Counted from the first letter of the stretch, positions 23,440-56,439 are shown. The stretch: DNA of 64,000 bases from Marsupella aquatica (GCA_973895155.1 OZ316892.1:5984476-6048475), one strand, 5' to 3'. The notes: generated from the letters alone by a model not told the origin. A program made the numbers and translations.

Positions 23440-25344
23440 ATGGCTCATCCAAGCTATCTCCCTTCCAGTGGAGATTTTGATGCAGACTTGGTGGCTATGG
23501 ATGATCCAGGGGAGTTAGAAAAGGTGCGTAAAGCTATGCAATCGACACATTTGCTGATACATGCTTTCAACCAGAGTTGGAAGTTCTTGGGAGGAAAAGG
23601 AAGCAAGGAGTCTCAGTTTCTGGAGTACCTGGAAAATATAGAAGCCAATGCTCCTGCCCTCGATGATTATGTGGAAACTAAGAATGCAAGGCTCTTGGGG
23701 GAGGGTGGGGGGCCTTCGATTGATGCTCTCAACTCCTTCCCGTCCCTACTAGATGATGGGTGGGACGATCCTGCCTTCAATGGAATGCAGCCTCATTCTC
23801 AGGCACCTAGTGGGACCCCAATCAAGAGCGTGGTCAGGGTAGCACATGACAAATTCCAACCTGATCAGGATCGGGACTCTCGCAGCCCGGGTCTCGCAGG
23901 CGGAGGAGGCATCGTGATAGAACACACAACAACAATAGCAGCCTTGATGAGAGAAGACGGAAGGGGAAAGGGAAGGAGTATAGAGATGCAGATCCACACA
24001 GAGGGAGATGCAAGGGCAGATAGAAGAGAGAGGTACTCACCTCAGCGTGAACGTCACTCCCACAAAAAGCGACAACCTTCTCCTGTGCGACCTGTAACTA
24101 TTGCTGTGAGTCGAGACAAACTCCCAACCATCACCTTGGATGCGTTTGATGCTAGGCCGGATGTTCTGGATGAGAAGGCCCTCACAAATCGAGTGCAGAC
24201 GTGTTGTGCCAAGCATTGTCCTGGTTGGACAACTTGGAAGGATCTCGCCCAGAACCCAAAGAAGTTTCAGCTCCTCCTAAACAATGTACAAGCTGGGTTT
24301 AGGAACGGCCGTGAAATAGACTATAGGCACATCAGACAGAAGATCGTAGGCTACCTTGCAGATCGGAGGTTTAGATGGAGAAACAAGGTTAAAAAAATGA
24401 GATGCCCAAGGACAGAGCAATACCTGAAACTAGATGGAATGAGCGACGCCGACTTCAAGTTGATCGTGGCTGAGTTGGAAGCAGCACCTGACACCCCAAT
24501 AGGCAAGCGAGTGCACATGGGGGACAAAGCTGCTGCAGCCCGCAAATCAAATGGCCGCCTGCGTGTGACCAATTTTTGGGGCCAGGGAGGATGGCGAGGC
24601 TTCCTTGCAACCTATGTAAGTCCCCCACCCTCTTCAAAGCACAGCTTGTTCATGCTTCGGCCGCTGCGGTGAGAACATTGAATTAACGTCATTTTTCTCC
24701 TCTAACATTGCAAGTTCTCAATTTTATGTCTACCCCCTATGTTCACCCTACCTAACGTCGTCTCTCACGATGTTACATTTAATTAACGTCCTTTGTGCAT
24801 TGTTAATATGGCGGTTCCACTATAAACAACATCTTGGACGACGTTAATTAGGAAACGTCGTTATGTACAATCATTGTAATTAACGACGGTGGTAACGACA
24901 TTCTACAATTTCCTGTAGAAATGCAAGTTTGGAGCCAACGCCAAGCCAAGTGAGCAGGAGCGGCTCTATTCAAAACACTATGGCCCGGAGGCCCTATGGG
25001 CTAAGCTGGACTCTGTCCCGGAGGACCACCCAGTGGTAAGTTACATAGTCAGGTTAGGTTCCTTCTATACTAAGTTTTGCATCCACTATTTGCAGGGAGG
25101 TAAACTGATCCCTTATGTCATGTGCAGGAGGATTGGAGTCCTCCAGAGGGGTTAGTGGCACGGCCCATTGCGAAAGATGAGGAGGCAGATCATGGAGGGG
25201 AGGAGCCTGATACGCAGGAGGAGGCCTTAGTAGACTGTGGGCAGGAGGGCAGTTTAGGTACACACGGCCGGTCATCTTCTGACCTCTCCCCTCCAATGGA
25301 GACTGATAGGGGTCATACCAACCATAGACGACGGAGAGAGAGAA

Positions 25345-25377
<33 letters not shown>

Positions 25378-25640
25378 AGAGGGGGGGAGGGAGGGAGAGA
25401 CATAGAGAGAGGAAGAGGAGCCGTGTCAAGAGGGATACCACTAGGGGACACAGTGGCACTAGAGATGTAGTCCCCAGGAGTAGAGGCAAGGGAGCTGCGG
25501 AGTTGGTGTCTGGTAGTAGTAGTTCAGACGAGGATCCACTTCGGTACGAGTTGCGGCCCCGAGGCAAACAGTCGGAGGCACCGCCACGTATTTCTGTTCA
25601 CAGGTCTGGACGTGATAGGAGCCGCTCTCAGTGGCATTAG
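23440..25640 (+). CDS. CACTA second gene (TnpA/ORF2-like), exons 23440-24615, 24919-25035, 25128-25640, ~601 aa
   Basis: GT-AG introns all in phase 0 give an uninterrupted frame; KAAAARKSN...NFWGQGGW resembles the Transposase_24-type motif; R/E-rich tail; divergent from tnpD. Confidence 0.65.
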
Positions 25641-31800: not shown

Positions 31801-32391
31801 ATACACATGCTCCCTGCTCTAGTAATCTATCTTCAGCTATCAGTTTCTAGCAGTAGAATGTTCAAGATAAGCCAATGCTTATGAACGACCGACAGCATGG
31901 CTGCCTCTATGTGAGATTGGTGCTGGATTAGTGATAGTTGTGTCTTCTTCCACCCTTTACCCTCCTACTGTCATCCAAGTTTCCTTAATGAGATATTGCT
32001 ACAATACTTTCCTCGGAATGCATTCTTTCGGACTAATCGTGCGTTCGTTATGCGGAGTCGTTGGTTGAGGAAGTTCCAACCGGTTCTGCTGTACGAGCTT
32101 GTGTAAGGAAGCCACCCTTGTCTATGATTAAGTCCCTTAAGATAAATGACAGGGAGATCGTGCGAGCGTTGCAAAATGCTGAAGCGCTTCTTCAACGCTG
32201 GAAGTGAGATAGGGAATGGATGAATGAGTGGAACTTGATTTTACAAGGTCTTAACTAGATACAGCTTTGATGTGGCTTTTAGAGTATGACCAAGTCGTGG
32301 CTCTGTTGTCCTGTAAAAAACTTTTTGCTACGAATCGACGGTGATGAGGAATTTGGTCCAGTCATTTTGATTTTAATATGCTTGGTGGCGG

Positions 32392-33285
32392 ATGGTGGCT
32401 CTTGTGATGAACGTTGACCTTGGTGTTATTTTGGGTGCTTCCCTCCAGTCCTATAACAGCATGCGGGAGCTAGTCCACGTTCTTCTGCGAGTTCTACCAT
32501 GGCTCATGACCACAGTTTCTGCCAATGTGATTCACTACTTCTCATTATTGATCGCCAAAGAAGAAGCCCACAGGCAAGTACTAGAAGCTGCAACTCCCAC
32601 GACTGGCAGACGTGGGAGATGGTACCCGGGAAGTGACCCCGAGGAGCATGAGCGCCTGTCGTTTGATCTGATGAACTCTCCAGCCATGAGAAAGGCAAGG
32701 TACCTGGTCAAGCTGGTTCGCTACGGATGCACCTTATTGTATGTCGCACTATTTTGTGACTTTTTGCCAGAGCTTAGCATTGAAACTTTCTCCCCTGGAT
32801 TGGGCACGATAGAAGCACTTGTTGTGGGAGTGCTGGGTGGATTGGTGACCTTGTATTTGAATGAGAATGGGGACTTTGATATAAGGACTTGTTGGAGACC
32901 TGACGTGGACTTTGGCTCCGAGTTCTGGGGTTGGCTATGGGATGGTATCCGGATTGCTGGGGCGTTTGCCACTCCAGTTGAGGATTCACTGATGTATCAT
33001 TCCTGGATATACAGGTCACTCACTTGTTATCTTACAAGAAACTCATACAACAGTTTCATAGACGTTCCATTCTTGGATTGGAATTGGGTAGCATGCATTG
33101 CATCAAATGGCGTGTTTGCTTTGTATAATGGGAAGGAGTGGCGGAGCTCTGGGTTGATAGGAATTCTCTCATTGTGGGTTACAAGCAGGAGAGGCCAGTT
33201 GCTTGATGGAATTCTGGCTCATGGACTCTGTAGAGTGACCATCAGTACCTGGGTTTTGTATACCGGACAACGGCAATATTGGTGA
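32392..33285 (+). CDS. CPBP/Abi (CAAX-protease-like) multi-pass membrane protein with degenerate catalytic motifs; true start may be ATG 32461
   Basis: Intronless ORF with hydrophobic helices; IRIAGAFATPVEDSLMYHS, FIDVPFLDWNW, GQLLDGILAHG..., WVLYTGQRQYW resemble bacterial CAAX prenyl protease-related proteins; splice acceptor at 32448. Confidence 0.7.
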   Translation: MVALVMNVDLGVILGASLQSYNSMRELVHVLLRVLPWLMTTVSANVIHYFSLLIAKEEAHRQVLEAATPTTGRRGRWYPGSDPEEHERLSFDLMNSPAMRKARYLVKLVRYGCTLLYVALFCDFLPELSIETFSPGLGTIEALVVGVLGGLVTLYLNENGDFDIRTCWRPDVDFGSEFWGWLWDGIRIAGAFATPVEDSLMYHSWIYRSLTCYLTRNSYNSFIDVPFLDWNWVACIASNGVFALYNGKEWRSSGLIGILSLWVTSRRGQLLDGILAHGLCRVTISTWVLYTGQRQYW

Positions 33286-37450: not shown

Positions 37451-37584
37451 CTGCAAGAACCTAGAGTGACAAGGGAAGTGGCCAAGTGAAACTAAATGTC
37501 CATAATCTGTATGGCCTAGCGGGGCCCGGTTTGACCTTGCCCGTCAAACTGGGCGTTTGAGAGCGGCAAATTGACAACCCGGCA

Positions 37585-38140
37585 CCCGGGTTCGGAAGCA
37601 GTCCGGGAAAGGAAACGTCCGGTTCGGGGTTCGGGTTCGGGAGGAGGTTCGGGAGAGGTTCGGGTGGGGGTCCGGGTGACTAATCGGGTCCGGGTCCGGG
37701 TCCGGGTCCGGGGCGGAGGCGCTCGGTGGGGGCTCGGGGTGGGGTCCGGGTGGGGTTCGGGTCCGCTCGGTGGGGGTTCGGGGTGGGGTCCGGGTGCGGC
37801 TCGGGTCCGGGAGGAGGAGGTGCGGGGGGTTCGGGTGGGGGTCCGGGTGGGGTTCGGGTCCGGGTCCGAGGGGTTCGGGTTCGGGAGGTACGGGGGGTTC
37901 GGGTGGGGTCCGGGCCCGGGGCGGAGGCGCTCGGTGGGGGTTCGGGGTGGGGTCCGGGTGGGGTTCGGGTCCGGGAGGCCGGGGTGGGTCCGGGTGGGGA
38001 TCGGGGTTCGGGGTCCGGTTCGGGGTTCGGGGTCCGGTTCGGGGTTTGGAAGTTCGGGTTCGGGATTGAGGCTCGGAGAATTAGGGTTTCGCAATTTAGG
38101 GTTGGAGGATGGGGCCGGCCGGGAAAGGGTCGGGGGCTCG
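37585..38140. repeat. Left subterminal GC-rich repeats (GGGTTCG/GGGTCCG) of the hAT element
   Basis: Dozens of GGGT(T/C)CGG motifs. Confidence 0.85.
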
Positions 38141-38409
38141 GGAGAGGATAAAAGGAGGAGATCCCTCCTCTCCCTCCTCATTTTCGGTTTTGCAGAAAGG
38201 AGGAGAGGAGGAGAGGAGGAAGAGGAGAGGAGAGGAGGAGGAGGAGGAGAGGAGGTGGAGGAGGAGGAGGAGGAGAGGAGGAGGAGGAGGAGGTAAGTGT
38301 TTGGTTTTGGTTTTTATTTTTTATTTTTGGTTTGTTTTTATTTGTTTGTGTTTTGTTTTGTGATTTTTTAAGTTTTTTTTGTGTTTTAAACCTTAACCTT
38401 AGAGCCAAA

Positions 38410-38780
38410 TGGAGGGATATAAAGAAACACTTGTACGCACACGCTTTGAGCCTCGGTTCAGTTTGCGATACTCCGTACAAGAATTTCTTAATATCACCTT
38501 AACAATTTAGTCTCCTTTGTTCATTAAGTAAAACATTTGCGGAGATAGAGGAATCCATGTACGCATGCTTAGAGTTTTGGCTCGGTCTGCGATACTTTGC
38601 ATGGATACCACGATTCGTCGAGAATGTTTTTACTTGAATTACAAATGAGTGTTAAGTTATAGACACCAAATCACATATGTCGAAGCAGGAATATAACAAC
38701 TTTGAAAGAAAAGAACACTTTTGTGCGCATGCTTTGAGCGTCCACTCGGTCTGCGATATTTCACAAGTGTTGTCTTTCTC
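38410..38780 (+). repeat. Left arm of a ~370-bp imperfect inverted repeat (partner 58620-58985), containing three GCATGCTTTGAG..CTCGGTCTGCGATA-like motifs
   Basis: 38411-38510 aligns to the reverse complement of ~58885-58983. Confidence 0.8.
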
Positions 38781-38985
38781 TTTTATTGTTGTTATATAGA
38801 AAGGTAATTAAAATCATGTGTGCAATAAAAATACATAATGCATGGGAGAAATAAACCGGGAAAAGATAATAACAATACGACTTGTAATTTTCAGGTTGGT
38901 CGTTGAATCCTTATTGGAAGGATTTTATTTAAATCCCAGTAAGATCTTGTTCCTCCCTCACATATTCCTTTTGTGAAGGGAAAAC

Positions 38986-40641
38986 ATGGTCATCGAAAAT
39001 TTTAGTTTAGAGTATAGGCAAGTGTTGAAGATGATCACAAAACATGTGAATGAGGGATATGAGCCGAATCTTGTTGCTCTGGATGCATTGAAGAACGCTC
39101 GAAACACTCTCGAACATGCTAGGAATTCTAGCAAAGTGGCCGGGAAATGAAAACGGAAGGGGGCAAACGAAGAGGCAAAACAGGTTCGACACAATGTGGT
39201 AGTGTCGATATGGAAAGAGATACTTTATCGCTACACTCAACCGAAACAGTATGGGGTGGACGGGTTCGAGAGGGAGTTCACAAGACACGGAGAGAAAGGA
39301 TACAAGAACTTTCTTGGTGAGATAACCCGTTGTATGCGGGAAAGTGTACAAAAGGAGGACAATTTCACACGAGAGCAAATGAAGTCATTTGAAGATGAAA
39401 CTGAGAAACCGGGAGGATTTCTGGAAAATTTGGCACTCAACTTGGAGAAGCATGTTTGGGATAATTTGGCAGCCAAAGTGGAAGAGGGTGACACTACATT
39501 GCTTGGAAACCCCGGGATGTACACACACAAGAGAGAATTGCTAGTGAAGTGGAGTAAGGAGTTGGCAATGGCAAAATCTGATAGCAATGTCAAATATGCT
39601 AACGAGATTGTGCACTTTGGGGATGTCAGCATCAAAAGTGCTCGAAAAGGAACACGTCCATCGCGTGTAGTTCCAGAGGTTAGGAGTATCCATTTTCTTA
39701 AACCTGAGCAGGTGCACAACACACGTCGCATTGGGAAAGGAATCCAAGGAGAGGTATACACTTGTCGTATATTACATTGTCCTCTCATTCCCGTCAACGT
39801 GACCTTAGTCGCAAAGCGGTTCAAGGATGGAGACAAGCATAAGAGACGAACTGACGCATTACAAGAAGTGCTTATGGGAGGACTGAATCATAAGGGAATC
39901 GTTGGAGCTCTTGCGTTGACTATTGAGGATCCGCCAAAACTTATTTACGATCACTATAATGGAGGTGACTTGGGTAGCTTTATTGATAAGTGCAGCATAT
40001 CGTCAAAGAGCAAGGGGAAGGCACAGATCACGATGGACCTTGATTTCAAGTTTATTTCGGAGAAGAAACTCTTGTTGGAGAACCGGTTGGGAATCGCCTT
40101 GGCTTTGCTGGAGACACTGCAATACTTGCATGAGCATGATCGATTTCATTGTGATCTTCACTTTGGAAACATCCTTCTTCATTTCGATCACGAGCACGAT
40201 GTGGCTATTAAGGTGTATGTTGGTTTATGTGATTTTGGCTTGTCTAAGCATAAATCACAGTGCAAATTACCAGCTAATCGGATGTGGCCCACAGCAACAG
40301 AAAAAGCAGCAACATACCAAAAACAATTTCCACAGTTGGCTCCGGAGCTTGTTCAACCTACCCCTGTCGAGTTTAGTGAAAGTACCGATATATATGCTTT
40401 GGGGAATATTTTTGAGACATTGTTGACAGAGAATTGGGATGGAATGTCTAAGGGTTCACGGTTTTTGGGGAGGGGTTGGAGTGCACAAGTGCATGGCCCC
40501 AAATTGGATATCATAATCAGTGAAATGATGGCCACGGATGCCAAGAAAAGAATGGATTGTGCTTTTTGGAGTTTGAAGATAGTTCGAATGTTTCCAGATT
40601 GCACATTGCATTTGCACAACAGTCCATATCTTAGAGATTAG
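38986..40641 (+). CDS. hAT cargo: protein kinase (non-RD). The ORF from ATG 38986 has one in-frame TGA at 39148-39150; the kinase domain itself is intact
   Basis: IGKGIQGEVY, VAKRF, HCDLHFGNIL, DFGLSK, LAPE, DIYALG; ATG 38986 is in frame with ORF 39196-40641. Confidence 0.85.
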
Positions 40642-40770
40642 GGTTTACACAATTTTGTAAAGGTCACCTTAACGATTATATGTTTATTCATTGTATGTCA
40701 ATTACAATGTTCTGCATTTTGTTGATAATATTCTATCAAACTTTGTCGTGAATGCCCAAAATTGTGCTAA

Positions 40771-42720
40771 ATGTGTTTGTACATTGTCAAATATCGCAGA
40801 TCTTTTGTACACATCGCAAACATGGGACGATGGGAATTGTCTTCTGATGATGAAGACAAAGAGTTCACGACACAACATCTTACCATGCAAGATGGTCAAG
40901 GATCCTATTGTGACGATGAAGCTCTTCGTAATAATGTGTTGGATAATCTTACAACCATTGGCATTCACTATGAGGCTAAACCCAAGGTTGATGGAACACC
41001 GGCGCCAAACACAAGAAGATGGGAAGATGAGGGTATGAAGGATGAATGGAGTATATTAACGCCCAATGTAAATCCTCCCCATGACGAATGGGCCATGAAT
41101 GCAAAGGAATTGGAGATGTTGATGCCAAAGAAAGACTTTTGGCCATTAGCACAACAAGTTTTTCACGATCCGGATCTTTGGGCAACAAGATCATGGGCGC
41201 AAGAAAAATTCACCATGTCCAAAGTAACACATGCAGGTGTTAAATCACATTGGCAGCAACAATATCGAGAGTTTGCTCCACACAAAGCCCAAACGAAAAT
41301 GAGTTCCGTTTACCCTCCTTTTATCCGATGTCTGATTGCTGAATTCATTCTCAAGTGGAAGGTGGATTACCGTTGGGAAAACAGTGCTGGCAAGCTGACT
41401 CATCAGGTGCATCCATCAGTGGTTGCGATTGCAACGAATAGGAATACAACTATTGCAAAGGACCCTTCAATGGAGACTTCCAACAAGGGATCCAAAAGAA
41501 AGCTAGATGACACTGGGGAGGGATATGCGCATGAGAAGGGGAAAGCGGCTGTACTTCCTCGAGTCTCCATGCCTGACCGTGCAGCACCACCAACCAATGT
41601 GGAGTCAACGCACACCAAAAAACCAATCCTTGTAGGTGTTGGGAGTAGAACTCCACATGCAAAGAACAACAATGTTACTGATGCTAACAAGGATAAGTTC
41701 AACCTGCACAACATATGCAAGAGCTTGGGGGCAGATGTTGCAGAGGTGATTGAGACAAATCTCCGCACGAAGTATGTAGTGGAGCTATGTGAATGTGGCA
41801 GCATCGAAAAGTTCAAGTCACAATTGCAACAAGCTGATATAAAGATGAGATCACTTGAGAAGAAGCAGAACGAGCCGACGACCAATTCGGAAGTGATGTT
41901 GTACAAGTGTCAATTGTTTGACAAGATGGAAGAAATCAATAAGCTGACAAAACAACTTGCTGAAAAAGAGCGTCAATGCAATGAACTGGCACGACTTGAG
42001 GAGAAGGACAAGATCATTAATGATCTTAAAAGTGAACTTGCAACGCAAGCAATCATCATATCAAATCTTCACGAAGAGGTGCAAGAATTTAACAATGGTG
42101 CTTTGGGGATGAGGTCAAACAAAGGGCAAGGTGAATTATCGTCGCCAAATTTTGTTAACATGCAAATCATAGATCCTACAGGGCACAGCAACCTTTTTCC
42201 AGATGTGGAGGTTGACGCGGAAGGTATTGATAGGTTTTTTGATAAGTGGAAAAAGGATGAAACTATGACAGCATTTGTTCGTGAAAAGGATGACAAGTGT
42301 ACTTGGTGCCTATATCCTTGGGGCCCTGAATCTGTTTCCATGTTGGGAACCTGCGGTCATATATGGCATCATGCTTGCTTGTCTAAATGGTTGAAGAAAA
42401 GCCGAAAATGTTGGTGTCGCACACCATTTCATGAACGTGAGTATGAGCAACGAGGATTGTTGAAGCAAATGCCATCAATAGAGACTCAACAAAATACTGA
42501 AGATATGACTGAAGATATGACTGAAGATACTATACCGGCGATGCAAATAGATGAAACTCCCATTGAACATTTCACAATCAATGAATATAATTTGTCAGAT
42601 GGGGAATTTGACAGGTTGTTATTCAGTGGTCGACTCGATGAGTGGAAACAATATGCGGCAGCCAACCAGCCATCAATAGATGAGCAAAATTTGCAACGAT
42701 CCATTTGGCGCCATCGATGA
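40771..42720 (+). CDS. hAT cargo: coiled-coil plus RING-H2-type zinc finger protein (putative E3 ligase); likely start at MGRWELSS
   Basis: 649-aa open frame; heptad-like region KMEEINKLTKQLAEKERQCNEL; CTWC-x14-CGHIWHHAC-x10-CWC. Confidence 0.75.
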   Translation: MCLYIVKYRRSFVHIANMGRWELSSDDEDKEFTTQHLTMQDGQGSYCDDEALRNNVLDNLTTIGIHYEAKPKVDGTPAPNTRRWEDEGMKDEWSILTPNVNPPHDEWAMNAKELEMLMPKKDFWPLAQQVFHDPDLWATRSWAQEKFTMSKVTHAGVKSHWQQQYREFAPHKAQTKMSSVYPPFIRCLIAEFILKWKVDYRWENSAGKLTHQVHPSVVAIATNRNTTIAKDPSMETSNKGSKRKLDDTGEGYAHEKGKAAVLPRVSMPDRAAPPTNVESTHTKKPILVGVGSRTPHAKNNNVTDANKDKFNLHNICKSLGADVAEVIETNLRTKYVVELCECGSIEKFKSQLQQADIKMRSLEKKQNEPTTNSEVMLYKCQLFDKMEEINKLTKQLAEKERQCNELARLEEKDKIINDLKSELATQAIIISNLHEEVQEFNNGALGMRSNKGQGELSSPNFVNMQIIDPTGHSNLFPDVEVDAEGIDRFFDKWKKDETMTAFVREKDDKCTWCLYPWGPESVSMLGTCGHIWHHACLSKWLKKSRKCWCRTPFHEREYEQRGLLKQMPSIETQQNTEDMTEDMTEDTIPAMQIDETPIEHFTINEYNLSDGEFDRLLFSGRLDEWKQYAAANQPSIDEQNLQRSIWRHR

Positions 42721-43285
42721 CGTCAACAACAGGCAGAGGTGAAAACAGAAGTTGTTGACAATAACAACAAAAGGAACTAAAACCAATAGTCTCTACATTT
42801 TGATGTTATTTTCATGTAGTTACTATTAGAGACATTTTGTTAAAATAGAAGCGGCATATCCTCTTTGACAATTATTTTCAACTTGTAATTGGTAAAGAGA
42901 TTTTGGAGTGACATTACATTGCATATCTCGTTGAGTACATATATTTTTCATTGGGGGCATGGCGTCGCCTTTTGGAGAATGTGTATTTTCGTAAGAATAT
43001 TCCATCCTCCAATCAGCCATAGGTTTTGGAAGCATATTGTCGGGCTCACAATCATATTTTTGGACAAGTATGAGGAAAATAGACGTGATGAGAGACGGTA
43101 GCACAGTAGACTCAGGTACTGATCCTTCTCTGAAATCATTTCCAAAAGGAGATCGTGTAGCACAATGAGTTCAACAAAGTCAACATCGCAATGGTTTTAG
43201 CCGCCCAAGTTGAGAATGATTTTGTAGAAGGATGTATACCTAAGTCCACTCACTTTTCCTGTCTTTCATAATTTTTTCCGCTATT

Positions 43286-44610
43286 GCTGCTACGGCCAAT
43301 GACATTCATGCACATGCGAACCGAGGCCAACGCCTACTCCTTTGCCCACCGCAAAAATGGGCCCTCATTACAACTTGAAGTTGAACGGAGTTTATTTGAG
43401 TACGAGAGAAGTTCTGAAAGCAAATGCACTCTCAGGTCAAATTTTCAGGTCCTTCGAGCAAAAAATTACTGAGTATGTCATCGATCCGTTGGTTTCACAA
43501 CTTCTCTCGTACTCAAATAAACTCTGTTCAACTTCAAGTAGCGTAGCTGCTACGACCAATGACATTCATGGGCATGCAAACCGAGGCCAACGCCTCTACA
43601 TTTGCCTACCCCAAAAATGGGCCCTGATTAGAACTTGAAGTTGAACAGAGTTTTTTTCATTATGAGAAGGTTTATTCAAGCAATGGCACTCTCAGGTCAA
43701 TATTTCAGGTCCTCCTGACTTTGTTATTATTGAATATGTTCGTGCTCCGTTGCTTGAATAAATCTTCTGATAATGAAATGAACTGACCAATTACTGGAGT
43801 ACGGCTGCTACGGCCTATGACATTAATTCGCACAATTGCATGTTTATATCCTCTCCTTTCCGAATTCCAATTCGAGCTTGGACATCCTCTCGTCAGCTGG
43901 TCTCCACCATTGCAGTTGCTCTTCACGCAAACCAAGATAGCAGTCTCTAGAATCCTCGAACCTATTTTATTTCAATGCATCATTCATAGTGTTTGAGGAA
44001 TCCAGAGGTTCGCATGAGGAGCAACTGAAAGGGTGGAGACCTGCTGACGAGAGGGTGTCCAAGCTCGAATTGGAATTCGGACAGGAGAGGATATAAACGG
44101 GTGAACTTTGACTTGAAATTGGTGACTGTATTTTGCGTCTGCATATCAATTTGGTGACCGATCTTGCGGAATCCCCGTGACCGTGTCTGATCATCATCAT
44201 GACATTGCTCTCCTTGGCCACCAATGGGCCCTCATTACAACTTCAAGTTGAACGGGGTTTATATGATTATGAGAAGGTTACTGATTATGTAGGCGATGTG
44301 TTCATTTCACAACTTCTCTCATAGTCATATAAACTCTGCCCAACTTCAAGTAGTGCAGCTGCTACGGTCAACGACATTCACCCACCCCAAAAATGGGCCC
44401 TCATTACAACTTCAAGTTCAACTAAGTTTATTTTATTACGAGAAGGTTTATTCAAGCAATGACATTCTCAGGTCCAATAATGAGGTCCTCTCGACCTCAT
44501 TATTATTGAATATGACGGTGCTCTATTGCTGGACTAAATCTTCGCATAGTGAAATGAACTAACCAATTAATGGAGGGGGCTAGTATGGACTACGGCTGCT
44601 ATGGCCAACA
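43286..44610. repeat. Degenerate ~260-bp tandem repeats inside the hAT element
   Basis: Recurrent GCTGCTACGG..A..GACATT and AATGGGCCCTCATTACAACTT.AAGTT.AAC. Confidence 0.8.
43842..44098. ncRNA. Long fold-back hairpin, candidate miRNA/hpRNA precursor
   Basis: Arms 43842-43933 and 44007-44098 are reverse-complementary at 84/92 positions, plus an inner stem; no TSD; expression unknown. Confidence 0.5.
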
Positions 44611-44847
44611 ACAAGGTACTTTGAAATAGTCAGTGTTGGAGATTTGGAAAACATGTTGCGTTGGTGTGTCTCTATGGCATTCTCAAATGCAAATACAAAT
44701 AAATTATTCAATCATTGTACAATAATAAACACACTGGAAGACAATACAATCATGTTACAAAAAATATAATTGTTTATAATTTTGTCTATGTCAGATACGA
44801 CAATATAAGAGTAGCAACACTTGATATTATCCTAATGAAAAGATGCT

Positions 44848-47140
44848 TCAAGGCTGTGAAGAGAAATTTCGTGCATTGTTGTTAAGATTTTTGCACAAAA
44901 GCGCATTCCACTCGTCTTGTTTGTCTCCCCAACTGAGTGGATCACGATTGTGTGACTGAACATTGTGCGATGTTTCTTGAAATGATGATATTCCTCGAAA
45001 CCCACCAAGGCCAATAGGCCTGTTCGACGTATATGGATTCATGACACTTGGCCCTGCATACGCATTCAAGGGTGGACCTGCATGGTGTTGCCAGTTTGCA
45101 TGTGGGTCGTTTGAAGTTTGACCTTCATGATTGTTGTATCCATGAAAAAAGGTTGATGTCCTTCCATTCGTCGGATGCCCTGCTGTGCCTGTGCGTTGCT
45201 CGTTGAAATATGGTCTGCTTGTGTCAACATCATTCGCAAAGTTCGACCAAGGTGACCTTGGTTGGGAAGGCATCATAAAGTTTATGTCCAGTGATGCATC
45301 TTCCTCGTCTTGGATTTGCGATTCATCAATTGTAGGATACATCTCCAAATCCATTTCATTCTCCCATTCCTCTGCAGCAGTGATGTCTGTATCTGGTGGA
45401 ATACGAGTCAAGAACTCACTATCCTTATCCAGTGAAAATCCGTGTAGCAATTCATCAGCATCATCAATTGTATCATAATCTTCGACATCTTCTTCACCAA
45501 GAGCCGCACGTGTTGCATCGTACTCTTCATTGCTGCACAACTCCATGGAGATAGGTCTAGGTCCATCATTTGTTCTTCTTCTTTGGTCATAACGTTCATA
45601 TATAAACGTATGCGGGTTTCGAACATTTGTGAGCCCTTTCTCTACCCTCATGTTTGTAAATACAAACACCAAATCTTTTGCTCGATCATTTGTCAATCGA
45701 TTGCGACTTTTGGAATGTATAAATCCATACGAACTCCAGTTTCGCTCGCAAGCTGATGCGCACACTTTTTGGTGTAAGATTCTTCGCGCCAGGATTCTCA
45801 AATATTTATAATCTGCACCATACGCATGCCACCACTCTGCTGGACTGACATTACCTATACTTGATTGGGCGGCTCCCATCGCTATTGATGTGTTGGGATT
45901 TTTTTTGGGCGTCAATGGCTTGACTGTGGATGGCAGAAATAAGTTCTCTGACGTCGCGATCATGGTTGATCCCCTCCTTCACCTGTTGTTCTGAATATCT
46001 AGCAATGTATTCACTGAAACCCCTGTAGAGTTCTGGATCTCCAGCGACATCTATGTCCTCATCAAAAAACATTTGGGGATTGAGATATGTTGTCGCTAGC
46101 ATGAAATCAGTGGTAAGAGATTTTTTTCGATCCAAATACACTTTTAGTATCTTCGGTTTCAATACCTCTGTTACCAATGGACAATCCTCCATGCTTGCTT
46201 TCAAAACATCAATCCCTCTTTTCAAACTCCAATACAACCAACCTGATTGCGGAGAATCACCATCAAATTCTCGCAACATCTTGACCAACGGAGTAAAGAA
46301 TTTAACTATATCCTTCACTTCAACCCAAAATGTATCTTGCTGTATCCACATTTTAAGTTCGTCTGCCTTTCCCCTCGTCATGTGTCCAGCTGATTTTGGT
46401 CGCAATGGAAGTCTATCACGATAAGACTGCCAATTATCATCAATGACCATCTGTTGTAAAGCTCCTCTTAGCTCCAACGCTCTTTGTGCCATTAGGAAAT
46501 TGGTCGCAAATCTAGTTGCATTTGGATTCAACAGTTTTTTGTCAGGAGATTTTCTTGCAAATATTGCAGAAAGCTTTTGCGATGATGAAACTGCTTTTAC
46601 TATCCACCTCAACTGTTTAAAAATCTTTTGGAATGGATTCTGTCCAGCATCATCTAGCACTACACGCTTGTGACCACACATATCCTCTAGCAGCAAATTA
46701 AACACGTGGGCAGCACACCAGCTCCAAGTGACATGAGGATACTTTTTCATGACTACCTCACAACCTGCTACGCGATTTGCGGGTGCTCCATCAGTTACAA
46801 TTTGAATAATATGATCTGCACCAATATCCTCAATGTATTTCAACCACATGTCGCCAAGATATTTCCCATCTTTCTTGTCAGCTTGCGCAGCATTCCAACT
46901 ATCCAAGAAGAAGTCACCTTTAGAAGTCAACAACATGACATTCATCAAAGGTTCTCTTCGGACGTTTTCCCATCCATCTGAAGAAAGAGAATACCCATAA
47001 GGTTTTGCCTCCTTTAAAGTTTGCATCATGTCCTTTGTGAGATCCTCCTTACTGTCTTCCAATAATTTCAATCGCAAACTTCGCATCGTAGGTAGAGAAT
47101 AACCATTGACAATCCCTTTTGAAGTCTCTATGACTGCTTC
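44848..47140 (-). pseudogene. hAT transposase, catalytic and dimerisation part
   Basis: DUF659-type SDGW, IVTDGA, CAAH, TRFATNF; WWHAYG, SACERNWS, RNRL; frameshift in the T8 run at 45899-45906. Confidence 0.92.
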
Positions 47141-47697
47141 CTCGGGGGTCTCACTATATGGAGGACCCCCCCATCACCTGCGACGTTTTCATGCCTAGAC
47201 CCCCATACTTATTAAGTTGAATTTTTTTTTTCCTCCCTCTTTCTTTCTTCTAAGAGTCTAAAATCCAAATTGTATTGCCCCTATAATTTGTGAAGTAAAG
47301 TGTCACATATCAATATAAAATGCCTAGAAAGAAAAGATAAGTCTATGTCAGTACCTTGTGAAGTCGTATGTCAGACATGGCACGCCCTGCAACAGTTCTT
47401 GCACCTTTGTCAACCTTAAACTTTGATCATTTCAATGCATCATTTATATTGTGTACCTAAAAGGTCATCCCAATATAAACCTTACGTGCATAAGTGGGAT
47501 GGCCTTTAAGGTCACAACATAAATAATCCATTCCACCCATTGATCACCAATCCCATGCTCCATCCATACTCCATTTAAAACTTATGTTGAGAGATGTAAC
47601 ATGTGACGGAGGGGAATTGAACCCCTAATTGAGAAAGGATCTCAAGTTGCCAATCCGTCACCCCCTATCCTATCCCACTACACCCACTAATATTAAC

Positions 47698-47775
47698 AAA
47701 ATAAAACATATATACAGACTCTCAAAAACTAAACAACAAAATAAAACATATATACAGACTCTCAAAAACTAAACA
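47698..47775. repeat. 40-bp tandem duplication
   Basis: AAATAAAACATATATACAGACTCTCAAAAACTAAACA occurs twice. Confidence 0.85.
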
Positions 47776-47787
47776 GTAACATGATAT

Positions 47788-50700
47788 TCATACCATTGTT
47801 TGAAGATACTGATCCAAAGCACGTCTATCTATTGGATCCAACACATAGATACGATCCATAACCCCTTCTTTCATGGTTAAACTAACACTAGCAATGACCA
47901 TTTCAATATCCATCCATTTCAAATCAGTGGTATCATATCTGAATTCACTTTTGCTCTTACCAATAGGACTATACCAATTTAACAACAGTTCACAAATGTT
48001 ACCTGATTGCCCTGCAAGTGGATTTGGCCTATCCATCAAATCAATTGGTGACCGACAATTGCCCCACCTACTGCCATACTTCTGTCTCATTTGGACAATC
48101 CGACCCAACCAAAAATATTTCTTACCTGCTGAGATTGCCTCCACCACAACCTTATTCTTTCCTCCCTTTCTTTTTCCAGATCTAGTACTTGGAGCAGGAC
48201 TATCATCAGACTCAAATGCAATTGCACAATCAGTGCCAACATCAACAAAACATGAGTTAGGATTGACTTCTTGCACTTTTCTCTTGCCAGTACTATAGTA
48301 TAGCACTTGTTTCACCCTTGTCAGCCTATCTTTTGACAAATGCGGATTTCCTACCAACTGGCTTACCAGAGTGGATTTGTAAATCACCTTGCCTTCATAA
48401 GTAACAGTAGGCACTACCTTGGTACGATTCTGTACATTAGTTACAGCATGGACAACTGATCCAAACACATGCCGAACTTCATGACCTAATGTCTCAAGCT
48501 CATCTGAGGGGTCTACATCAAACTGTATATCATCTCTGTGTACATCATCTGAATGCATCTCAGGAACAACAATGGGATCTGGTTCTGTTAACCATGCATC
48601 TATTCTATTCAGATCATCCTCAGGATCTTCCAATTCATGAAAATCTCCAGTTGGGCGAGGACCTATGTCTGGTGGTTGGTGCTCTACTTGCTCCTCAGAA
48701 TCATTGCAAACAATTGCTTCCTTCAGAACCACCTCTAGTGGCCAGGTCTCACTTTCCACAACCCAAGGACATGTCCACCATCTCTTTCTAGCTGCTGGTA
48801 AGGAACTTCGTGGAGACATCTGCAATTGATGCATAAGATCCTTAGCAGCAACAAAACCTTCTTTAAGGGCTGCAACCACTAATTCATTAGTCTCAATGAG
48901 AGAATAGTCAAGTAGATTTGGTGCTTCCTCCCCTTCCCCTATAGGATGAATCTTCCCCCATACATGATCTTGTTTCTTATGTGAACGACCTATCTTCAAG
49001 CCTTCTGGTCCATATTCTAGGGCAGCAAGCCGGTTCAGTCCAACAGCACTATCCAACAGAGAGCCAAAATCATAATTCCGCTCATGGCCACTCATGCCTC
49101 CTACCTTGCTGAAGAAAATCTCACAACAATCTGAACCTAGCAAGTGGAAGGGAACACCTAGATGTGGGAACTTATCTCGAAAGGCACAAATTAACAGCAC
49201 AATGAAATGACATGACATGTTAACATCATGAAAAGCCTGAATAGACATCATGTCTTTCTCAGTGTGTGCTGCAAAGTTCCCACCCACTGAATGGTCACCA
49301 AACCTCAACCACAATCTCCACAAACGTAGAAAGAATGAAACCTTGGATGCTAACACAATACGGGACCTCAAATCATGAACTGGAGAAAAGAAAATATCTA
49401 AGTAATCTGCACAAATCTCCAAGTACAACTGAGTTCCTAAACTTCGTTCATGTTGTACATCTCTCCTCTCATACATATCTTTTAGACATTGCTGCACTCT
49501 TCTTGCTGCTATTCGTTGTGGACCTGCCCAATTCTGCCGGTCAGTCCTATTCACATCATCCCAAGCCATGCCATGTTCATGAATTGGATAATGATTGTAG
49601 ACATTAGCTACATAAGATAAAGATGCATGTTGATCTCCTAGCACCAGTAAAGAAGACACTCTGTCTAAGGGGTTTATCATCTTTTTCCCATTATGAGGTT
49701 GGTCTTGGTCACCAAAGCCATACAAATCTCCATTTGGTAGAATTGAAACAGAGTATGTCCACCCTTCCCACCCAACTCCGTACCTTGGGTATGATCCATT
49801 CTGCCCTCTGTAATCTTCCAGCATCAGCTTTCGGCGACGTGCATCACCATCACTAGCATGTCCAAGCAAAGGGCCTACCATAGCTCTACAATATTCATCC
49901 CAAAAAGCCTTTAACTGGACCCAATGCTCTCGTACCCGGCCAAGAAGCTGTGAACTTATTACAAGTTGGAAGTGCACACACAGCCAATTTAGGTAAGGAC
50001 TCATGCAGAGGATTCACAATCACAACTCGGGCATACATGCACTTGGGGCATTGTTCAAATGTACTTACAATTTTATCATACCCCTCATCACCTTCACCAA
50101 CTAGAATTTCCAAACCATAGGAGCATACATGCTGCTCTGAAGGTCCACAGAAACCAATGAGAGTATCATACTTTGCCTCCCACCTGAAACACAGACATGC
50201 AATTTTTCAATATCACAGCAATTCCAGCCAAGTGCTACTTGTAAAGTCATTAAAAAAACAATTGGAAAAATGTCCAGTTCCAATTACCTAGGGCGTTCTT
50301 TGATCCTTGTTTCATCCTCAGCAAAGATAACAGGCACATCCCCCTCAATGCCCAATGAGTGCTTTGCAGCAGACAACACTCTAGCAATCTCCTGAAAGGT
50401 TTCCTTCCGTAACCCGGTTCGAAAAGGTGTGAGTTTTGCTCTATCACGTTTTAGGGTCACAAGGCTAGGGGCTGTCAAGTTTCGTGCAAAACAATGAGCA
50501 ACTTGACGGCCCCCAAATTGGAACATAGCCTGAGCAATAGCTCGAGTCCTATTACTGTAACGATTACCTTTTGGCTTCCTGCCTAAATTGCGAGCTACAT
50601 CCTTCAAGAAATCCCACAAACCCTCCTTACCACCAAATGCACCATTCCTGTGTCCATTCAAAATACTCCTAAGAAACAATCTCAAATCCTTCCTGTCTGC

Positions 50701-52368
50701 TGCAACTCCTAACAACTCCTCTAGTTTACGTTTCCTGGTGCTCAAGGCACATACTTTCTGAGCCTGCAAAGCTAACAACCAACGCTCTTTTCGTCGCACA
50801 GAGTTCAGGTTGTGCACTTGATCTCTTAACTCTGTGTTGGTCAAATAATCCAAACGTATACCACCAGCAGTGGTTCGGCTCCCTCTGTGGACTACTGCTT
50901 CCGCTTCCCTGTGCACCCGTCCACGAAAATCATCTTCTAGTGTTATAGAATCACATTCACTACAAGTTAGATTTTCAAATCCTCCTCCATTCTGTGATAA
51001 CCTCAAGCAATCCTTGTCTCTAAAACAGCCTGCTATACTCACAACACTCTCTCTACTTGGATGGAAAACATCCAAGCAACAACTTGGCTCACAATGCCAT
51101 GTAATTCCCCCAGACTGATCATCTAAAATGCCAGAAATATCATAAGATATACCCTTCCATAACAGTCGAGGCACACCTCTCTCTACCCATAATCCCCAGC
51201 AAAGCAAACTCAGACCAAGATCAACAAATTCACACACACCTGAACCTGAACCTGAACTGCTGCCTGTCCGGGACCCATCATCTTTAAAGAACTTCAAAAT
51301 CCCGCTCTGACCAGGATGTAGGTCCCTAGAATCAGTCCTCTTTGGCCTGCCCCTCTTCCCAGACCTCAAGGCAAGCATTTTTGTGTCATGCCTAGTCTCC
51401 AATGCATCCAAGTGATCTCGACTCACTAAGTGTGTCCTCAAATTGGGCTCCAAGGTAAGCTTCTTGGGGCACAAGTCAGTGTGAAGCATTCCACAGACAG
51501 TGCAGCGAACCTTAAATAGGAAAGACCTGTTTACATACTCAGGAGTACTGGGATCAGGAACAATAGAGAATAGTTTGCCATCATCCCCAAGCTCAGCATT
51601 CAATCGCTGAACTATCTCAACACCTACTTTGATGGCGTCTGCATGATCATATTCTGGCTTCTCAGAGATGTCTGCTACCTGAACCAAAGTAGAAGGAATG
51701 CCCCTTCTCCGACAATAGTTATCCTTGTGCTTATTGAAGACCAAGTGTTTGGTCTTAAAATTACTAAAGCAATTGGAGATGGATTTAGGGTTCTGAGAGT
51801 TGTCTGCATTGCCATAAGTTTCCCTACATTCAAGACACTCCAGATGCCCTCGAACATCTGTCCCCTCATCCCAGGTACGAATTCTCCAATTGTGATCACC
51901 ATAACCCTTCTTATGTACCCATTTCTCTAACCTCATCCACTCATCTTTCCATAGCTTTGATGGGACATCTCCCATCAATTGTGACTCAAAAGAAGCCCTT
52001 ACAGGGGAGGGTGCTAGTGCTGTTGGCCTCAGTTGTGGTGTCTCAGTATTTGGACCCAATGATGCAGGAGTGCAAGGATGACAGGGTACTGGTGGGATCC
52101 TCCCACCATCTCCAAGTTCTTGTTGTACAACAATAACTCTTCCATCCAGCTCAGACAGATCAATTAATTTCTCATGTACAAGTTTCACTCGACCAGGAAG
52201 TCTCTCATCCCAAAAATCGAAGTCAAAGTCTAGAGTAGAGGCAATACGAGCCCTAAAATCATGTAGGGTGTGTCCTTCTTTGAATGACAAAACACAGATT
52301 GGTAAATCAGCCTTGTCATCCCCAACTTTGCGTATTAATTTAACAGAGTTGGGTTTAGGGGCTGCCAT
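47788..52368 (-). pseudogene. P-element-like DDE transposase (~1490 aa), exons 52368-50288 and 50183-47788, one frameshift near 49937
   Basis: AEDETRIK (D1), GHASDGD (D2), DQPHNGKKMIN (DxxH motif), GSDCCEIFFSKVGG (E); two N-terminal C2H2-like fingers and an AT-hook KRGRPKR; 104-nt GT-AG intron. Confidence 0.78.
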
Positions 52369-52867
52369 TGCAATACAAATCTAGAACATGCATAGCACCA
52401 TTGCTTTTGGAGTCGATAACAGAAAGACCTGCACAAATACATTTGAAATACACACAAGGGAAACACATTAGGATCTTCAAGAGATGCAATGACAACATAC
52501 ACATTCTCATGTCAGTAATGTACATAATGTCAGCATACATTTAACAATAGAAGTGCTAATAGGCCAAAACACTTTATAATGCAATCCATCATACATGCAA
52601 ATGTATTCAGTGAAAATCATGATATACCGTTAAAGTTGGATAAAATATCTTTAGAAAAAATATCCTTTTTGCCTAGTTTTCTAACAATTCCTGAGGTTTA
52701 GTGCTTTTGCTCATCAAAATGCAGCACTATTAGTGACCGTAATTATGACAAAATGTCAACACTAATAAAATTGGGTACTACCACCCATGATGCAGCTTAA
52801 GTATATGCCTTGCTCATACCCCACTAAGACGTTGAAACCTAAGTAATAGGTTTGTTCATTATTCAGA

Positions 52868-53527
52868 TCACTGGAGCCATGAAATGTGGTCCCTGATTGG
52901 AGTCTTCAGGTGTGGATCAATAGGATGACGGGGGCAATAAAACATCTGTCGCTGTTGTCCATGTGCTTCATGTTCCCAGATGTCCCTATCATGAGCAAAC
53001 CCTTTGCTTTTGATCATCTGGAGACAATCTGTATGCCAGGCATTTGGACATCGTAAACATTGTACCATGTTCTTGACCATCTGACCCTCAAGACTCTGAT
53101 AACATGTCACACATGTATGCAGTGGGCAGGACTTTGCAGCAGCTACCAAACACCCAAAGCAATAAAATCGTACACAAAAATGATCAGAGCATTTTCGCAC
53201 AATTGTAGGTGACGGTCCCACAGTGCGGCACCCATAACACATGGCCTGGTCCTGGTTACAATTTGGGCAAAACCATGGCTTCCCTCCATGATGGAGGGGA
53301 AGGACTACACAGGGGCAAGAGTCATTAGGGGCTTCATCTCCAACCACATAATGAAATTGCCTGTGACATGGCCCATCACAAATTACCAACTTCCCACCAT
53401 GCTCACAAATTGCACAAACATGAGGGCTGGTTTGTAGAATCTCTTGCTCAGAGAACAAGGGAATACACAATACCTCTTCTAAAGAGGATTGTGTTGCTTT
53501 CTTTATGTTTGAAGTCCTTGTCGGCAT
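52868..53527 (-). CDS. P-like element cargo: stand-alone EDM2/NSD-type composite PHD finger protein (~219 aa)
   Basis: CAICEHGGKLVICDGPCHRQFH, WFCPNC, CYGC, CPLHTCVTC, CLRCPNAWHTDCL, YCPRHPIDPHLKTPIRDHI. Confidence 0.82.
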   Translation of the reverse strand: MPTRTSNIKKATQSSLEEVLCIPLFSEQEILQTSPHVCAICEHGGKLVICDGPCHRQFHYVVGDEAPNDSCPCVVLPLHHGGKPWFCPNCNQDQAMCYGCRTVGPSPTIVRKCSDHFCVRFYCFGCLVAAAKSCPLHTCVTCYQSLEGQMVKNMVQCLRCPNAWHTDCLQMIKSKGFAHDRDIWEHEAHGQQRQMFYCPRHPIDPHLKTPIRDHISWLQ

Positions 53528-53869
53528 GGTTACAACTGAAATCATCACAAAGCACATCACATATGAGAGGGACATGTATGATACTGGGCAATCCATAGAA
53601 CTTGGAGAAATCCACATTTGAAGTAGTTACAAACCTGCTCCAATGATCTGCAAACCTCCCTCCCAGATGAAGTCAACTACACAGTGCAGCCTGGACACCC
53701 ACCAACCAAGACATACATAAATACAATGCCAGCTTGCGAAACTTTGCCACATAATGGGAATGAAAATTATTCTCATATATCATGGATGGTACAATTGCAG
53801 CCTTGCAAACAAAGGCCTAGTCATCCCGGACCTCAAGTCATGAACAACGCATCCATGTACTATCAGGGA

Positions 53870-54268
53870 CTACAATGTCAAGCATCCATGGGCTGTAACC
53901 TTAGCTTGACCTGGAATACTATCTGGGGCTACAATATCAAGCTCAGTTATATGTGGAATACTATCTAGGACTACAATGTCAAGCGTGTCCGGGATGACAA
54001 TCTTGCGTAAAAGACACTCATTTTGAGGCCAAATGGTTGGCCTTATACAAGAGCACCTCCAGCGACGTGTGACAACTTTGCCATGCTTTCCCATGTATGT
54101 CCTAGTAACAAGTCTTCCACGCATTTTCAAGCAGAAGCAATGGAACCATTCAAAATTGCCATCACCAACCCTGCACTTCACACAAGATTCGCACCAGCAG
54201 CATTCATCTGGATGCTGCAAAAGGAGCTTCTCATAATTCGCTTCTAATGTAATGCCCAATTTAGCCAT
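53870..54268 (-). CDS. Small Cys-rich ORF with a PHD-like EWFHxxC motif (possible second cargo gene or exon)
   Basis: CCWCESCVKC...FEWFHCFCL...WRCSC. Confidence 0.4.
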   Translation of the reverse strand: MAKLGITLEANYEKLLLQHPDECCWCESCVKCRVGDGNFEWFHCFCLKMRGRLVTRTYMGKHGKVVTRRWRCSCIRPTIWPQNECLLRKIVIPDTLDIVVLDSIPHITELDIVAPDSIPGQAKVTAHGCLTL

Positions 54269-56439
54269 GGCACTATTTTTTTTACTCGGTGAATGGCCAG
54301 GCGATCAGACGTGCAATGACAGGCAACTTACAATTCACTAGGTACAGTATGTGCTCTAGCAAACTGCTTCACCGCAAGTGCTGGTGCTCACAGCTACAAG
54401 CACTGATTGCTTTTGCAACCTGTGAACAAAATTAAAACCACCAGTTCAATAAGTTTCAAATGCTGCAAGCACTGAAGACAACCAATTGGCCATGATGCAT
54501 GTTACGACAGCAATAAACAAATAATTGGGCTCAACAGACCTGAATAGCTAACCTGAATAGCTAACCTGAATAGGATCATGGACCTCTCATAGCTATGGTG
54601 TCCTTCCTACATTACACATTGGTCTAATTTATGCAGTGTTTCACTATGATTGTGTTCCATAGAAGAGCATCCAATCTGGCTGACCATTGGAGGAAGCTTG
54701 GGCTGGGTCATAGCTACAGCAATTACTCCTCTGCAAATGCTATTTGTTGGTAACACATGTTTACTCATCAGTAGATGAATGAAGCATCTGAGGTTTTTGA
54801 AACTTGTGCTCTGATGAGGGAGTGAGTGACGTGGGAGCCATGATAATCATAGATTCAATGCAAAAGCAAAATCCGTGCTCAAAGGCAAACGTGGCAAAAT
54901 TGGGTATATGTTCTTCACTGCCAAAGCTTCTGTTTGCGCAGCAAAATCCACGAAAGGAATGAAGGAACAAGGGGGAACTCCAGACTCAAGAGCCTCAATT
55001 GCTGCATTGTGGAAACGCGTTGCGTGGGAGAAGTCATTGGCTTGTAGAAGAAGTAAAAGTGTGCTGGTGAAGGATTTTGTGGTCGGGGTGCATCATAAGG
55101 TTGACACAGAGAAGAGAGAGGTGTGGAGAGGCGAGGAGAGGAGCAGAAAAGTAGGAAAGGCCGTGTAAGGCAGTCGATAAAAAGCGAGTTAGGTTTGGAG
55201 TGTCCTCTCGACAGCAAAGGATTTCGTGTGTGCTGAATTTGTTGCTGGTCCAAATTCCAGGAGCCAGTCAGTAACGGAATAGTGGAATTTTGGGAATAGC
55301 AGATGCTCATCAGTCGCAGCATCTGCGTATGTTTTGTCATCTGGGGAGAATTCAATGAGGTTTGTGGTTTTGGGGAAGGCTGCTGTGAAGAGTTTGTGTT
55401 CGTGTGGAGGGATTGGTGGCAAATTTTGATTGGTGCAGGGCAGAAGTAGCAAGAGATGGGAGAGTGACAGGATGTGGAGATCGGTTGGCCGTAACCAAGG
55501 CAGCGCCAATGACGACGAGGAGCGCGAAGAGGCAAAGGCGGAGGAAGATGAGGAGGTAGAAGAACCAGACCACCAAATAGAGAATTTACTACATCAAAGA
55601 CACTACAGAGATGAGCGCATCAATGGGCTACAACATATTCAAGTGTGGATCCCTTTTTTGCAATCAACTCACGGAAATAGAGGATTTACACTTACTTGCC
55701 CCACCACAAATCATTCTTGGAAGTGTCTTCCTTGACAACACGTTTGTCCTTCGGAGATCGGCCAGTTTTCGCCCCGGAAAGCGTGGCAAGAGCCCCTGTC
55801 CAGGTGATGTACAAACTCTTCTCGTGCTTCAGAGCCTGTTCGTAAAGCGCTGCAAAGAGAAACGGCAAAAACTTTAGTCATTATAATTGAATCAGAACAT
55901 GGGAACAGACAGAGACAGCTTCCAAACGCTCAACTAAATCCTGAAGCAACAACCATGACGATCGCGACCCATATGCGGCGAATGGACACAACTATGCTAG
56001 GACAGGACACAACGAGAGGGCACCGATCACCGTATCTAGAGAGCTGATTTATTCGTCTCCTACAAATCATAAGTCGCACAGTAGAGTTTCTACGCATCTT
56101 AACGTAGGAACGAAGGTAAAAGGTAGTTTTTTTACCAGGCATCCTTGGAAATGAAAGCAACTTTTGAACTATCGACATGATGTGACAGAGTACAAGAAAG
56201 GCCTTCAGTGCATGTGAAACAGAAATGCTAGAACTACTCATGAGTTCACATGAAACACAATTCCCCGGTCTAACTACTTTCAAATCTCGATGGGCAAATC
56301 TAATGCATATGACTTGCGCAAGCAATGTCTATGGAACACATCGGCTACGACCGCTACCAGATAAGGTGTGCCATGCGTGGTACATATGGGCTTCAAACAG
56401 TAGCAAGCAAGCATGATTGAGCGTCAAACAATAGCAAGC

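Follow-up and report, generated by a model that had tools for sequence, protein, structure and literature searches.

In a 64,000-nucleotide stretch of the Marsupella aquatica genome (GCA_973895155.1 OZ316892.1:5984476-6048475, hereafter the window, with positions counted from its first base), we identified an hAT element which carries, in addition to its transposase, a protein kinase gene, a RING-H2 gene and a cluster of five hairpins. It is an hAT by the criteria tested, no description of its set of cargo was found in the literature searched, and the precedent for a kinase as cargo is found in the fungal IS3EU elements. As judged from the sequences, the kinase is an old cargo under purifying selection. 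We propose, at about even chances, that the kinase, the RING protein and the hairpins form a nuclear-acting accessory kit against host silencing, which would aid the spread of the element.

The outer hAT spans 37525–59750 (22,226 bp), with an 8-bp target site duplication (TSD) and 8-bp terminal inverted repeats (TIRs); without a nested 10.8-kb transposon it measures 11,439 bp (~11.4 kb). Its features are as follows:

37517–37524: left TSD, TAGCGGGG, with its twin at 59751–59758
37525–37532, plus strand: left TIR, CCCGGTTT, eight bases exact and 13/20 matching the right end
37580–38300, plus strand: GC-rich GGGTTC/GGGTCC repeats, in a region that also holds a predicted GA-rich leader exon
38081 and 38096, plus strand: two telo-box-like TTAGGGTT motifs, within 37580–38300
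38293, plus strand: predicted splice donor GTAAGT
38411–38763, plus strand: left subterminal repeat, in which a GCGCATGCTTTGAGC..CGGTCTGCGATA-type motif occurs three times
38986–40641, plus strand: kinase gene of 551 codons, ATG at 38986, stop at 40641, nonsense codon at codon 55
40642–40821, plus strand: AT-rich spacer; its only YAG, a predicted splice acceptor, ends at 40799
40822–42780, plus strand: RING-H2 gene, with its stop at 42720 in this copy and at 42780 by the allele of sequencing run X1 (described below)
43345–44570, plus strand: five hairpins, four related and one long and unrelated (43842–44098)
44848–47140, minus strand: 3′ part of the hAT transposase (DUF659 and dimerisation domain)
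47133–47140 and 57920–57927: 8-bp TSD of the nested element, ACTGCTTC
47141–57919, minus strand: nested, separate DNA transposon of 10,779 bp with a 15-bp TIR, CTCGGGGGTCTCACT
57928–58539, minus strand: 5′ part of the hAT transposase, start at 58539
58628–58983, minus strand: right subterminal repeat, three motif copies
59743–59750: right TIR
59751–59758: right TSD

The 8-mer TAGCGGGG has just two copies in the window on either strand, at 37517 and 59751. Both ends run inward into GC-rich repeats and then into a degenerate inverted repeat, at which 38411–38763 and 58628–58983 gave an inverted match of 72% over 359 bp. The two parts of the transposase are in frame with each other across the nested insertion site, and Pfam detected DUF659 (PF04937, E 2.4e-30) and Dimer_Tnp_hAT (PF05699, E 1.3e-10) on the minus strand. 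Also present are the motifs SSDGW, QIVTD, CxAH and ACERNWS, which we take to be the catalytic motifs of hAT transposases. The 8-bp TSD, the short TIRs, the subterminal repeats and a transposase with a dimerisation domain are those of the hAT superfamily. On the other hand, the ends, CCCGGTTT, begin with CCCGG and do not match the usual hAT terminal consensus (C/T)A(A/G)NG, which is a tendency rather than a strict criterion.

The initial annotation had placed two co-oriented, apparently intronless open reading frames (ORFs) inside the hAT boundaries, with the transposase on the opposite strand. Both ORFs were confirmed, without coding introns (kinase at 38986–40641 and RING at 40771/40822–42720), and their position was borne out by the boundaries and the Pfam matches. 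No TIR/TSD or long terminal repeat specific to the kinase-RING cassette was found around it; the inverted 10-mer matches there, four in all, look like chance and lack a TSD, and there is no 14-mer direct repeat, which supports the two genes being part of the hAT.

The kinase has an N-terminal helical region with a basic cluster, followed by a non-RD kinase domain (Pfam PK_Tyr_Ser-Thr, E 1.6e-16). The Gly loop, the beta3 Lys, the alphaC Glu, the catalytic Asp and Asn, DFG, APE and the subdomain IX Asp are all present, as had been stated for the catalytic residues. Among 7,994 scored candidates 11 relatives were found, with 47–82% identity, two of which are named Calypogeia fissa, and full-length open relatives of 540–553 amino acids (aa) exist. 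In the kinase alignment (A1) the catalytic Lys and Glu do not vary, and the 10 rows that extend to the loop all read HxD[LMF]H..N (10/10). Thus, the HCDLHFGN loop, previously noted as an oddity, is rather a family signature, with an HxDxH loop in 10/10 relatives. By these residues, the kinase would be active and would transfer phosphate to protein. The basic cluster, near residues 42–58 (142 in the N-extended P0006), was detected in 7/10 kinases scanned and is likely a nuclear signal; in the window kinase it is cut by the nonsense stop.

Selection on the kinase was examined in three comparisons, including two kinase loci (L001 and L002) recovered from 97 candidate stretches in a metagenome scan. 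The ratio of non-synonymous to synonymous substitution rates (dN/dS) was at most ~0.13 in 3/3 comparisons, at saturated dS, and between families the proportion of synonymous differences was 0.72–0.76 vs 0.26–0.33 for non-synonymous ones. The cargo consists of whole ORFs under purifying selection and not of decaying host fragments such as define Pack-type or transduplicated cargo.

These values bear on the possibility that the genes are neutral passengers, i.e. host genes which the element picked up and multiplied with no gain from them, comparable to histone H3 in fungal hATs (PMC6710886). Both this copy and most Calypogeia kinase models, which lie on 10 different contigs and are mostly truncated or split, are broken, as passengers might be. 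However, neutral passengers would not be expected to keep such a low dN/dS, nor the same C-terminus in 7/8 full-length relatives, nor a conserved place next to the subterminal repeat; in addition, the profile search showed no close parent outside the family. We therefore regard this explanation as very improbable overall and, where the kinase is concerned, as mostly refuted already.

This search, run on 1.84 billion representatives, returned 976 matches, 16 of them at 1e-30 or better; full kinase domains outside the kinase family had E-values of 1e-22 at best. In a quick, midpoint-rooted tree of 118/160 matched domains, which took in domains of at least 190 residues and left out named host kinases, the family formed one clade (Shimodaira-Hasegawa-like approximate likelihood ratio test support 99). 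This clade was nested in a wider HxDL[HS] set including a Riccia fluitans protein, apart from HRDLK kinases with a support of 86 only. Neither the searches for relatives, made with the kinase and with the RING protein, nor the profile search revealed a close host parent. The best PDB sequence matches were Roco4 and receptor tyrosine kinases (E ~5e-8), and the kinase model, with a predicted local distance difference test (pLDDT) of 64, matched many kinases equally well (Z 10–11). The kinase is thus tyrosine kinase-like (TKL-like), with no parent found among these matches. The fold search barely covered its N-terminal helical region, as the kinase domain filled the results.

No kinase relatives were found among 44 candidate stretches in viral contigs, nor any relative among nine in prokaryote genomes; a fold search of viral proteins returned generic kinases only, at 11–19% identity, and ESM Atlas searched with P0016 returned generic kinase clusters. 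The matched proteins also included a large non-RD kinase set (P0053–P0133), one from Riccia fluitans, with HNDLS, HNDLH and HCDLH loops and a YxNGG motif; these are possibly further transposon-borne families.

The first in-frame ATG of the RING ORF is at 40771, while the ATG common with its homologs is at 40822. The protein has a conserved N-terminal domain without known family, long predicted helices, the RING-H2 and conserved C-terminal helices. Pfam matched zf-RING_2 (E 6.4e-6), and all eight ligands (C3H2C3) are present as C-x2-C-x14-C-x-H-x2-H-x2-C-x10-C-x-C in the window protein, P0012 and P0028. The best PDB matches of the RING profile were RING-H2 E3s (RNF165/Arkadia, E 1e-5), so that ligase activity may be assumed from the ligands and these matches. 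Three relatives were found among 5,207 candidates and one more among 138 short ones, in a search which spanned 30–193 aa and left forms of 194–346 aa outside; two are from Calypogeia. A further relative is a full-length 632-aa cluster member, to which identity peaks at residues 161–200 (85%) and 481–560 (80–82%), indicating a like degree of conservation in the N-terminal domain and in the RING. ESM Atlas gave no usable match for residues 60–230, the RING model (four sequences) was unusable at a pLDDT of 38.7, and no RING relative was found among 605 in viral contigs.

The distance between the genes, given earlier as 130–180 bp, is 129 bp from the kinase stop to the first in-frame RING ATG and 180 bp to the shared ATG. 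In all three loci (the window, L001 and L002) the kinase is followed by a spacer with 69–70% AT and a YAG 158–171 nt after the kinase stop. A spliced fusion of the two genes, as had been suggested, is unlikely, since the kinase C-terminus LRD-stop is shared by 7/8 full-length kinases and the RING start MG[RK]W by 3/3 homologs reaching it. Instead, the RING mRNA is predicted to arise by alternative splicing from one leader with its strong donor at 38293. Roles in promotion and as splice donor may be assigned to the 37580–38300 region, and a further predicted acceptor, at 38894, lies upstream of the kinase ATG.

Sister copies were sought in two runs of one study, X1 and X2, of which 84 and 392 contigs, respectively, aligned to 38950–46100 at 95% or more; copy number and linkage were judged from these run contigs only. 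Two further runs, X5 and X6, contain small shares and were not counted as support. Three X1 contigs read 47140 directly into 57928, i.e. show the empty site, and 14 others show other flanks at 47141, thus the nested element is a separate one. The window copy carries four lesions (the kinase nonsense codon, the RING nonsense codon, a transposase frameshift and the nested insertion), so the single TGA first noticed is not the only one, and X1 contigs are free of all four. The guess that this TGA, at 39148–39150, arose from CGA agrees with the sole X1 contig over 39148, which has C, and with the Arg of the homologs; X2 has no cover there. At the RING stop (42718) one X1 contig reads CGA, which adds 20 residues as in the homologs P0012 and P0028, while the sole X2 contig at this site agrees with the window (T). 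The transposase frame, broken within the T run 45899–45906, is restored by an extra TT (at 45898) in both X1 and X2. Over 38950–46100, X1 differs by 21 substitutions, 16 of which are A>G or T>C. Among the 11 coding differences that separate this copy from the X1 contigs, 10 are nonsense or non-synonymous and 6 lie at CpG; it thus decayed after insertion. Under a second organism label, 73–75% of the cassette's words were found.

The depth of the eight X1 pieces listed over 38950–46100 was 183.5–235.5, compared with 15.9–18.6 in three diverged X1 pieces. It was flat over the kinase, the RING gene and the transposase, at ~11–13x that of the diverged contigs; thus, the cargo was likely amplified with the element. 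The pieces overlap or abut from the subterminal repeat to the kinase, from the kinase stop to the RING gene, from the RING gene to the hairpins and from the hairpins to the transposase. With the diverged pieces taken as single copy, all parts would be present in roughly twelve near-identical copies. The near-identical sister contigs and the perfect TSD are the only signs that intact copies may transpose.

The first 544 bases of L002, before the kinase, match the left subterminal region of the window (local score 61; mean 21 and maximum 36 in 300 shuffles), and the match takes in motif copies and the predicted acceptor, though the two kinases are 47% identical. L001 starts inside the kinase, and its next ORF gave a short, 33-aa peptide which compared to RING N-termini with a shuffle p of 0.04–0.20. 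No hAT transposase was found in either locus, and the kinase-transposase linkage is shown for the family of the window element only. In L002 the intact kinase is followed by a DUF6729 gene (E 2.1e-11) with no adjacent RING gene before the locus ends at 5.8 kb. DUF6729 and DDE-like ORFs, intact-looking, were observed right behind this kinase, at 2350–5822; the region may be alternative cargo or a nested transposon, with the RING gene possibly further on. Furthermore, neither of the two Calypogeia RING models has a neighbouring accession among the 11 Calypogeia kinase accessions (an incomplete sample). Prediction of a kinase-RING complex, which scored 0.00 with an uncertain partner fold, speaks neither for nor against a pair.

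Thus, of the hAT with a kinase and RING pair originally described, the part that stands is that the genes belong to the hAT, given the equal-depth sister contigs, the missing boundaries of their own and the conservation of both proteins beyond this genome; a coupling of the two was not established, in view of L002 and Calypogeia. The pair does not look obligate, and on thin evidence the kinase appears to be a constant part of the clade and the second gene an exchangeable slot. Strict phosphorylation followed by ubiquitination of one target, as had been suggested, is accordingly improbable, and the proposal does not require it.

The same loci bear on a toxin-antidote or spore-killer system, in which one product would kill cells or spores lacking the element while the other neutralises it, giving drive in a haploid-dominant plant. 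The two genes are tightly linked and both under selection, and the lesions of this copy abolish the kinase altogether but shorten the RING protein by 20 residues only, although this kinase-first decay is one observation. The L002 kinase precedes its DUF6729 gene, the motifs of which we take to be nuclease- or transposase-like. In Spok drivers, a predicted kinase domain serves for resistance and the nuclease for killing (PMC6660238). However, the kinase of L002 is intact although no RING gene adjoins it, Pfam showed no nuclease domain in the window cargo, and a dispersed multicopy element would presumably profit less from drive than a single locus. We consider such a system unlikely.

The hairpins, which the initial annotation had not included, lie between the 3′ ends of the RING gene and the transposase and are candidate small-RNA precursors by their predicted folding (plus-strand z from −6.3 to −16.8, with 30 shuffles per hairpin). 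One arm of the long hairpin (43842–44098) is coding-like, and its translation matched nothing in PDB or Pfam; in Rfam the hairpins gave only sub-threshold miRNA matches. At up to four mismatches, the arms matched none of the coding sequences of the kinase, the RING protein and the hAT transposase, which points outward, to host targets. This argues against another explanation, that the substrate of the kinase and of the RING protein is the transposase of the element itself (phosphorylation activating it and ubiquitination turning it over), so that they time or limit transposition. Ordinary DUF659 hATs are, moreover, generally known to function without kinase or RING genes. In its favour, the position of the kinase in the element is kept across 47% identity, no close host paralog was found, and the putative mirror-image promoter regions suggest co-expression. 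On balance, such self-regulation seems slightly less probable still than toxin-antidote drive.

A benefit of the cargo to the element is suggested since selection acts on genes that travel only with the element, and among such benefits anti-silencing has the best precedents and fits the basic, likely nuclear, signal and the outward-pointing hairpins; we think it may equally well be right or wrong. Under our proposal of an accessory kit, the two ends would bear promoters that mirror each other, with the transposase transcribed from the right end and the cargo from the left. The leader exon (donor 38293) would be spliced to 38894, giving the kinase mRNA, or to 40799, giving the RING mRNA, with the hairpins within the 3′ part of the cargo transcription unit. 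An active nuclear kinase would phosphorylate a host chromatin or silencing protein, the RING protein would take its substrate by the N-terminal domain and ubiquitinate it, and the hairpins would yield small RNAs against host genes.

Several observations weigh against this proposal. The anti-silencing function is drawn from precedent alone, and no DNA- or chromatin-binding domain was found in the kinase or the RING protein. The zf-RING_2 match, at 26.8 bits, is just below the 27.3 cut-off, the last ligand pair of the RING is CxC (CWC) rather than C-x2-C, and the usual Pro is absent. The YAG at ~160–170 nt is the sole one in the window spacer but the second in L001 and the fourth in L002, so its conservation is partly a matter of choice. 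As to the sister copies, contig depth cannot be read as copy number, X1 may come from the same sample as the window, the unit as a whole lies on no single contig, and one contig provides the open allele of the kinase. The many CpG transitions in this copy indicate, in addition, that the hAT family is methylated, at least once inserted.

It is a more doubtful extension of the proposal that bryophyte hATs include an old clade with a private kinase family and a virus-like, three-layer counter-defence (the kinase, an effector that can be exchanged, for instance a RING E3, and a cluster of small RNAs) in one alternatively spliced transcript, where, in the present family, the kinase would mark a host silencing factor and the RING protein destroy it.

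The element shares 8-bp TSDs, short TIRs, subterminal repeats and the DUF659 and hAT dimerisation domains with plant DUF659 hATs, but differs from them in its two extra conserved genes, its hairpin cluster and its CCCGG start. No description of a kinase- or RING-bearing hAT was found in the literature at the title and abstract level, with Repbase reports and subscription journals outside this scope. In fungi, TET/JBP genes are carried by transposons including hAT7, a precedent for cargo of the anti-silencing type, and IS3EU elements carry an alpha-kinase gene in the orientation opposite to the transposase (PMC12730594). Like our element, these are DNA transposons with stable enzyme cargo; unlike it, they are fungal, their kinase is an alpha-kinase and not Hanks-type, and ‘RING’ has 0 occurrences in the passages of that paper searched. 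VANC of the Arabidopsis VANDAL elements provides another precedent for anti-silencing cargo (PMC5735166). VANDAL/VANC and the red-algal Plavaka PAG (10.1101/2025.02.11.637652) share with our element selected accessory genes and repeated non-coding motifs, the binding of which by cargo would be putative here; however, they belong to the Mutator and EnSpm superfamilies and their products bind DNA or modify DNA or histones, and are neither kinases nor ubiquitin ligases. Hairpin precursors of miR820 lie inside rice CACTA elements (PMC3459959), which is a further precedent for anti-silencing cargo, whereas our five candidate hairpins are known from sequence alone. Spok drivers and CRN kinase-nuclease effectors (PMC5289972) likewise are divergent kinases tied to selfish or conflict systems, but they are single proteins joining nuclease and kinase, and Pfam, by which homology was compared here, showed none.

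Transposon accessory genes have been described as rare (10.1101/2025.02.11.637652). Those characterised in the papers cited here act on DNA, histones or RNA, while a kinase and a likely ubiquitin ligase would, if our proposal is true, target the proteins of the host, in the manner of viruses. A family that amplified recently and whose frames seem to be open offers a route to how plant DNA transposons escape silencing, and bryophyte kinase counts may include transposon cargo.

The nested element is multicopy, and has a large transposase-like gene in pieces (52380–47788), for which neither Pfam nor PDB gave a match. It also has an NSD-type PHD ORF (52868–53626; PF23004, E 1e-7). Its motifs DETRIK, ASDGD, DQPHNGKK and DCCEIFF are presumably reminiscent of P-element/THAP9 transposases. 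CpG is strongly depleted in it (observed/expected 0.25–0.32), and a tandem repeat array (56848–57307) is found close to its right end. A ~300-bp derivative of the nested element at 1925–2221, resembling a miniature inverted-repeat transposable element, has both TIRs and an 8-bp TSD, AGCAAATA. Elsewhere in the window we identified a decayed copia retrotransposon (4743–8494, gag PF14223), a host-like 2OG dioxygenase exon (12460–13029, DIOX_N), CACTA-like remains (16392–25640) with DUF4218 at 18097–18696 (E 7e-29) and further ORFs on both strands, and a host-like CAAX-protease-like ORF (32377–33285), weakly similar to Rce1.

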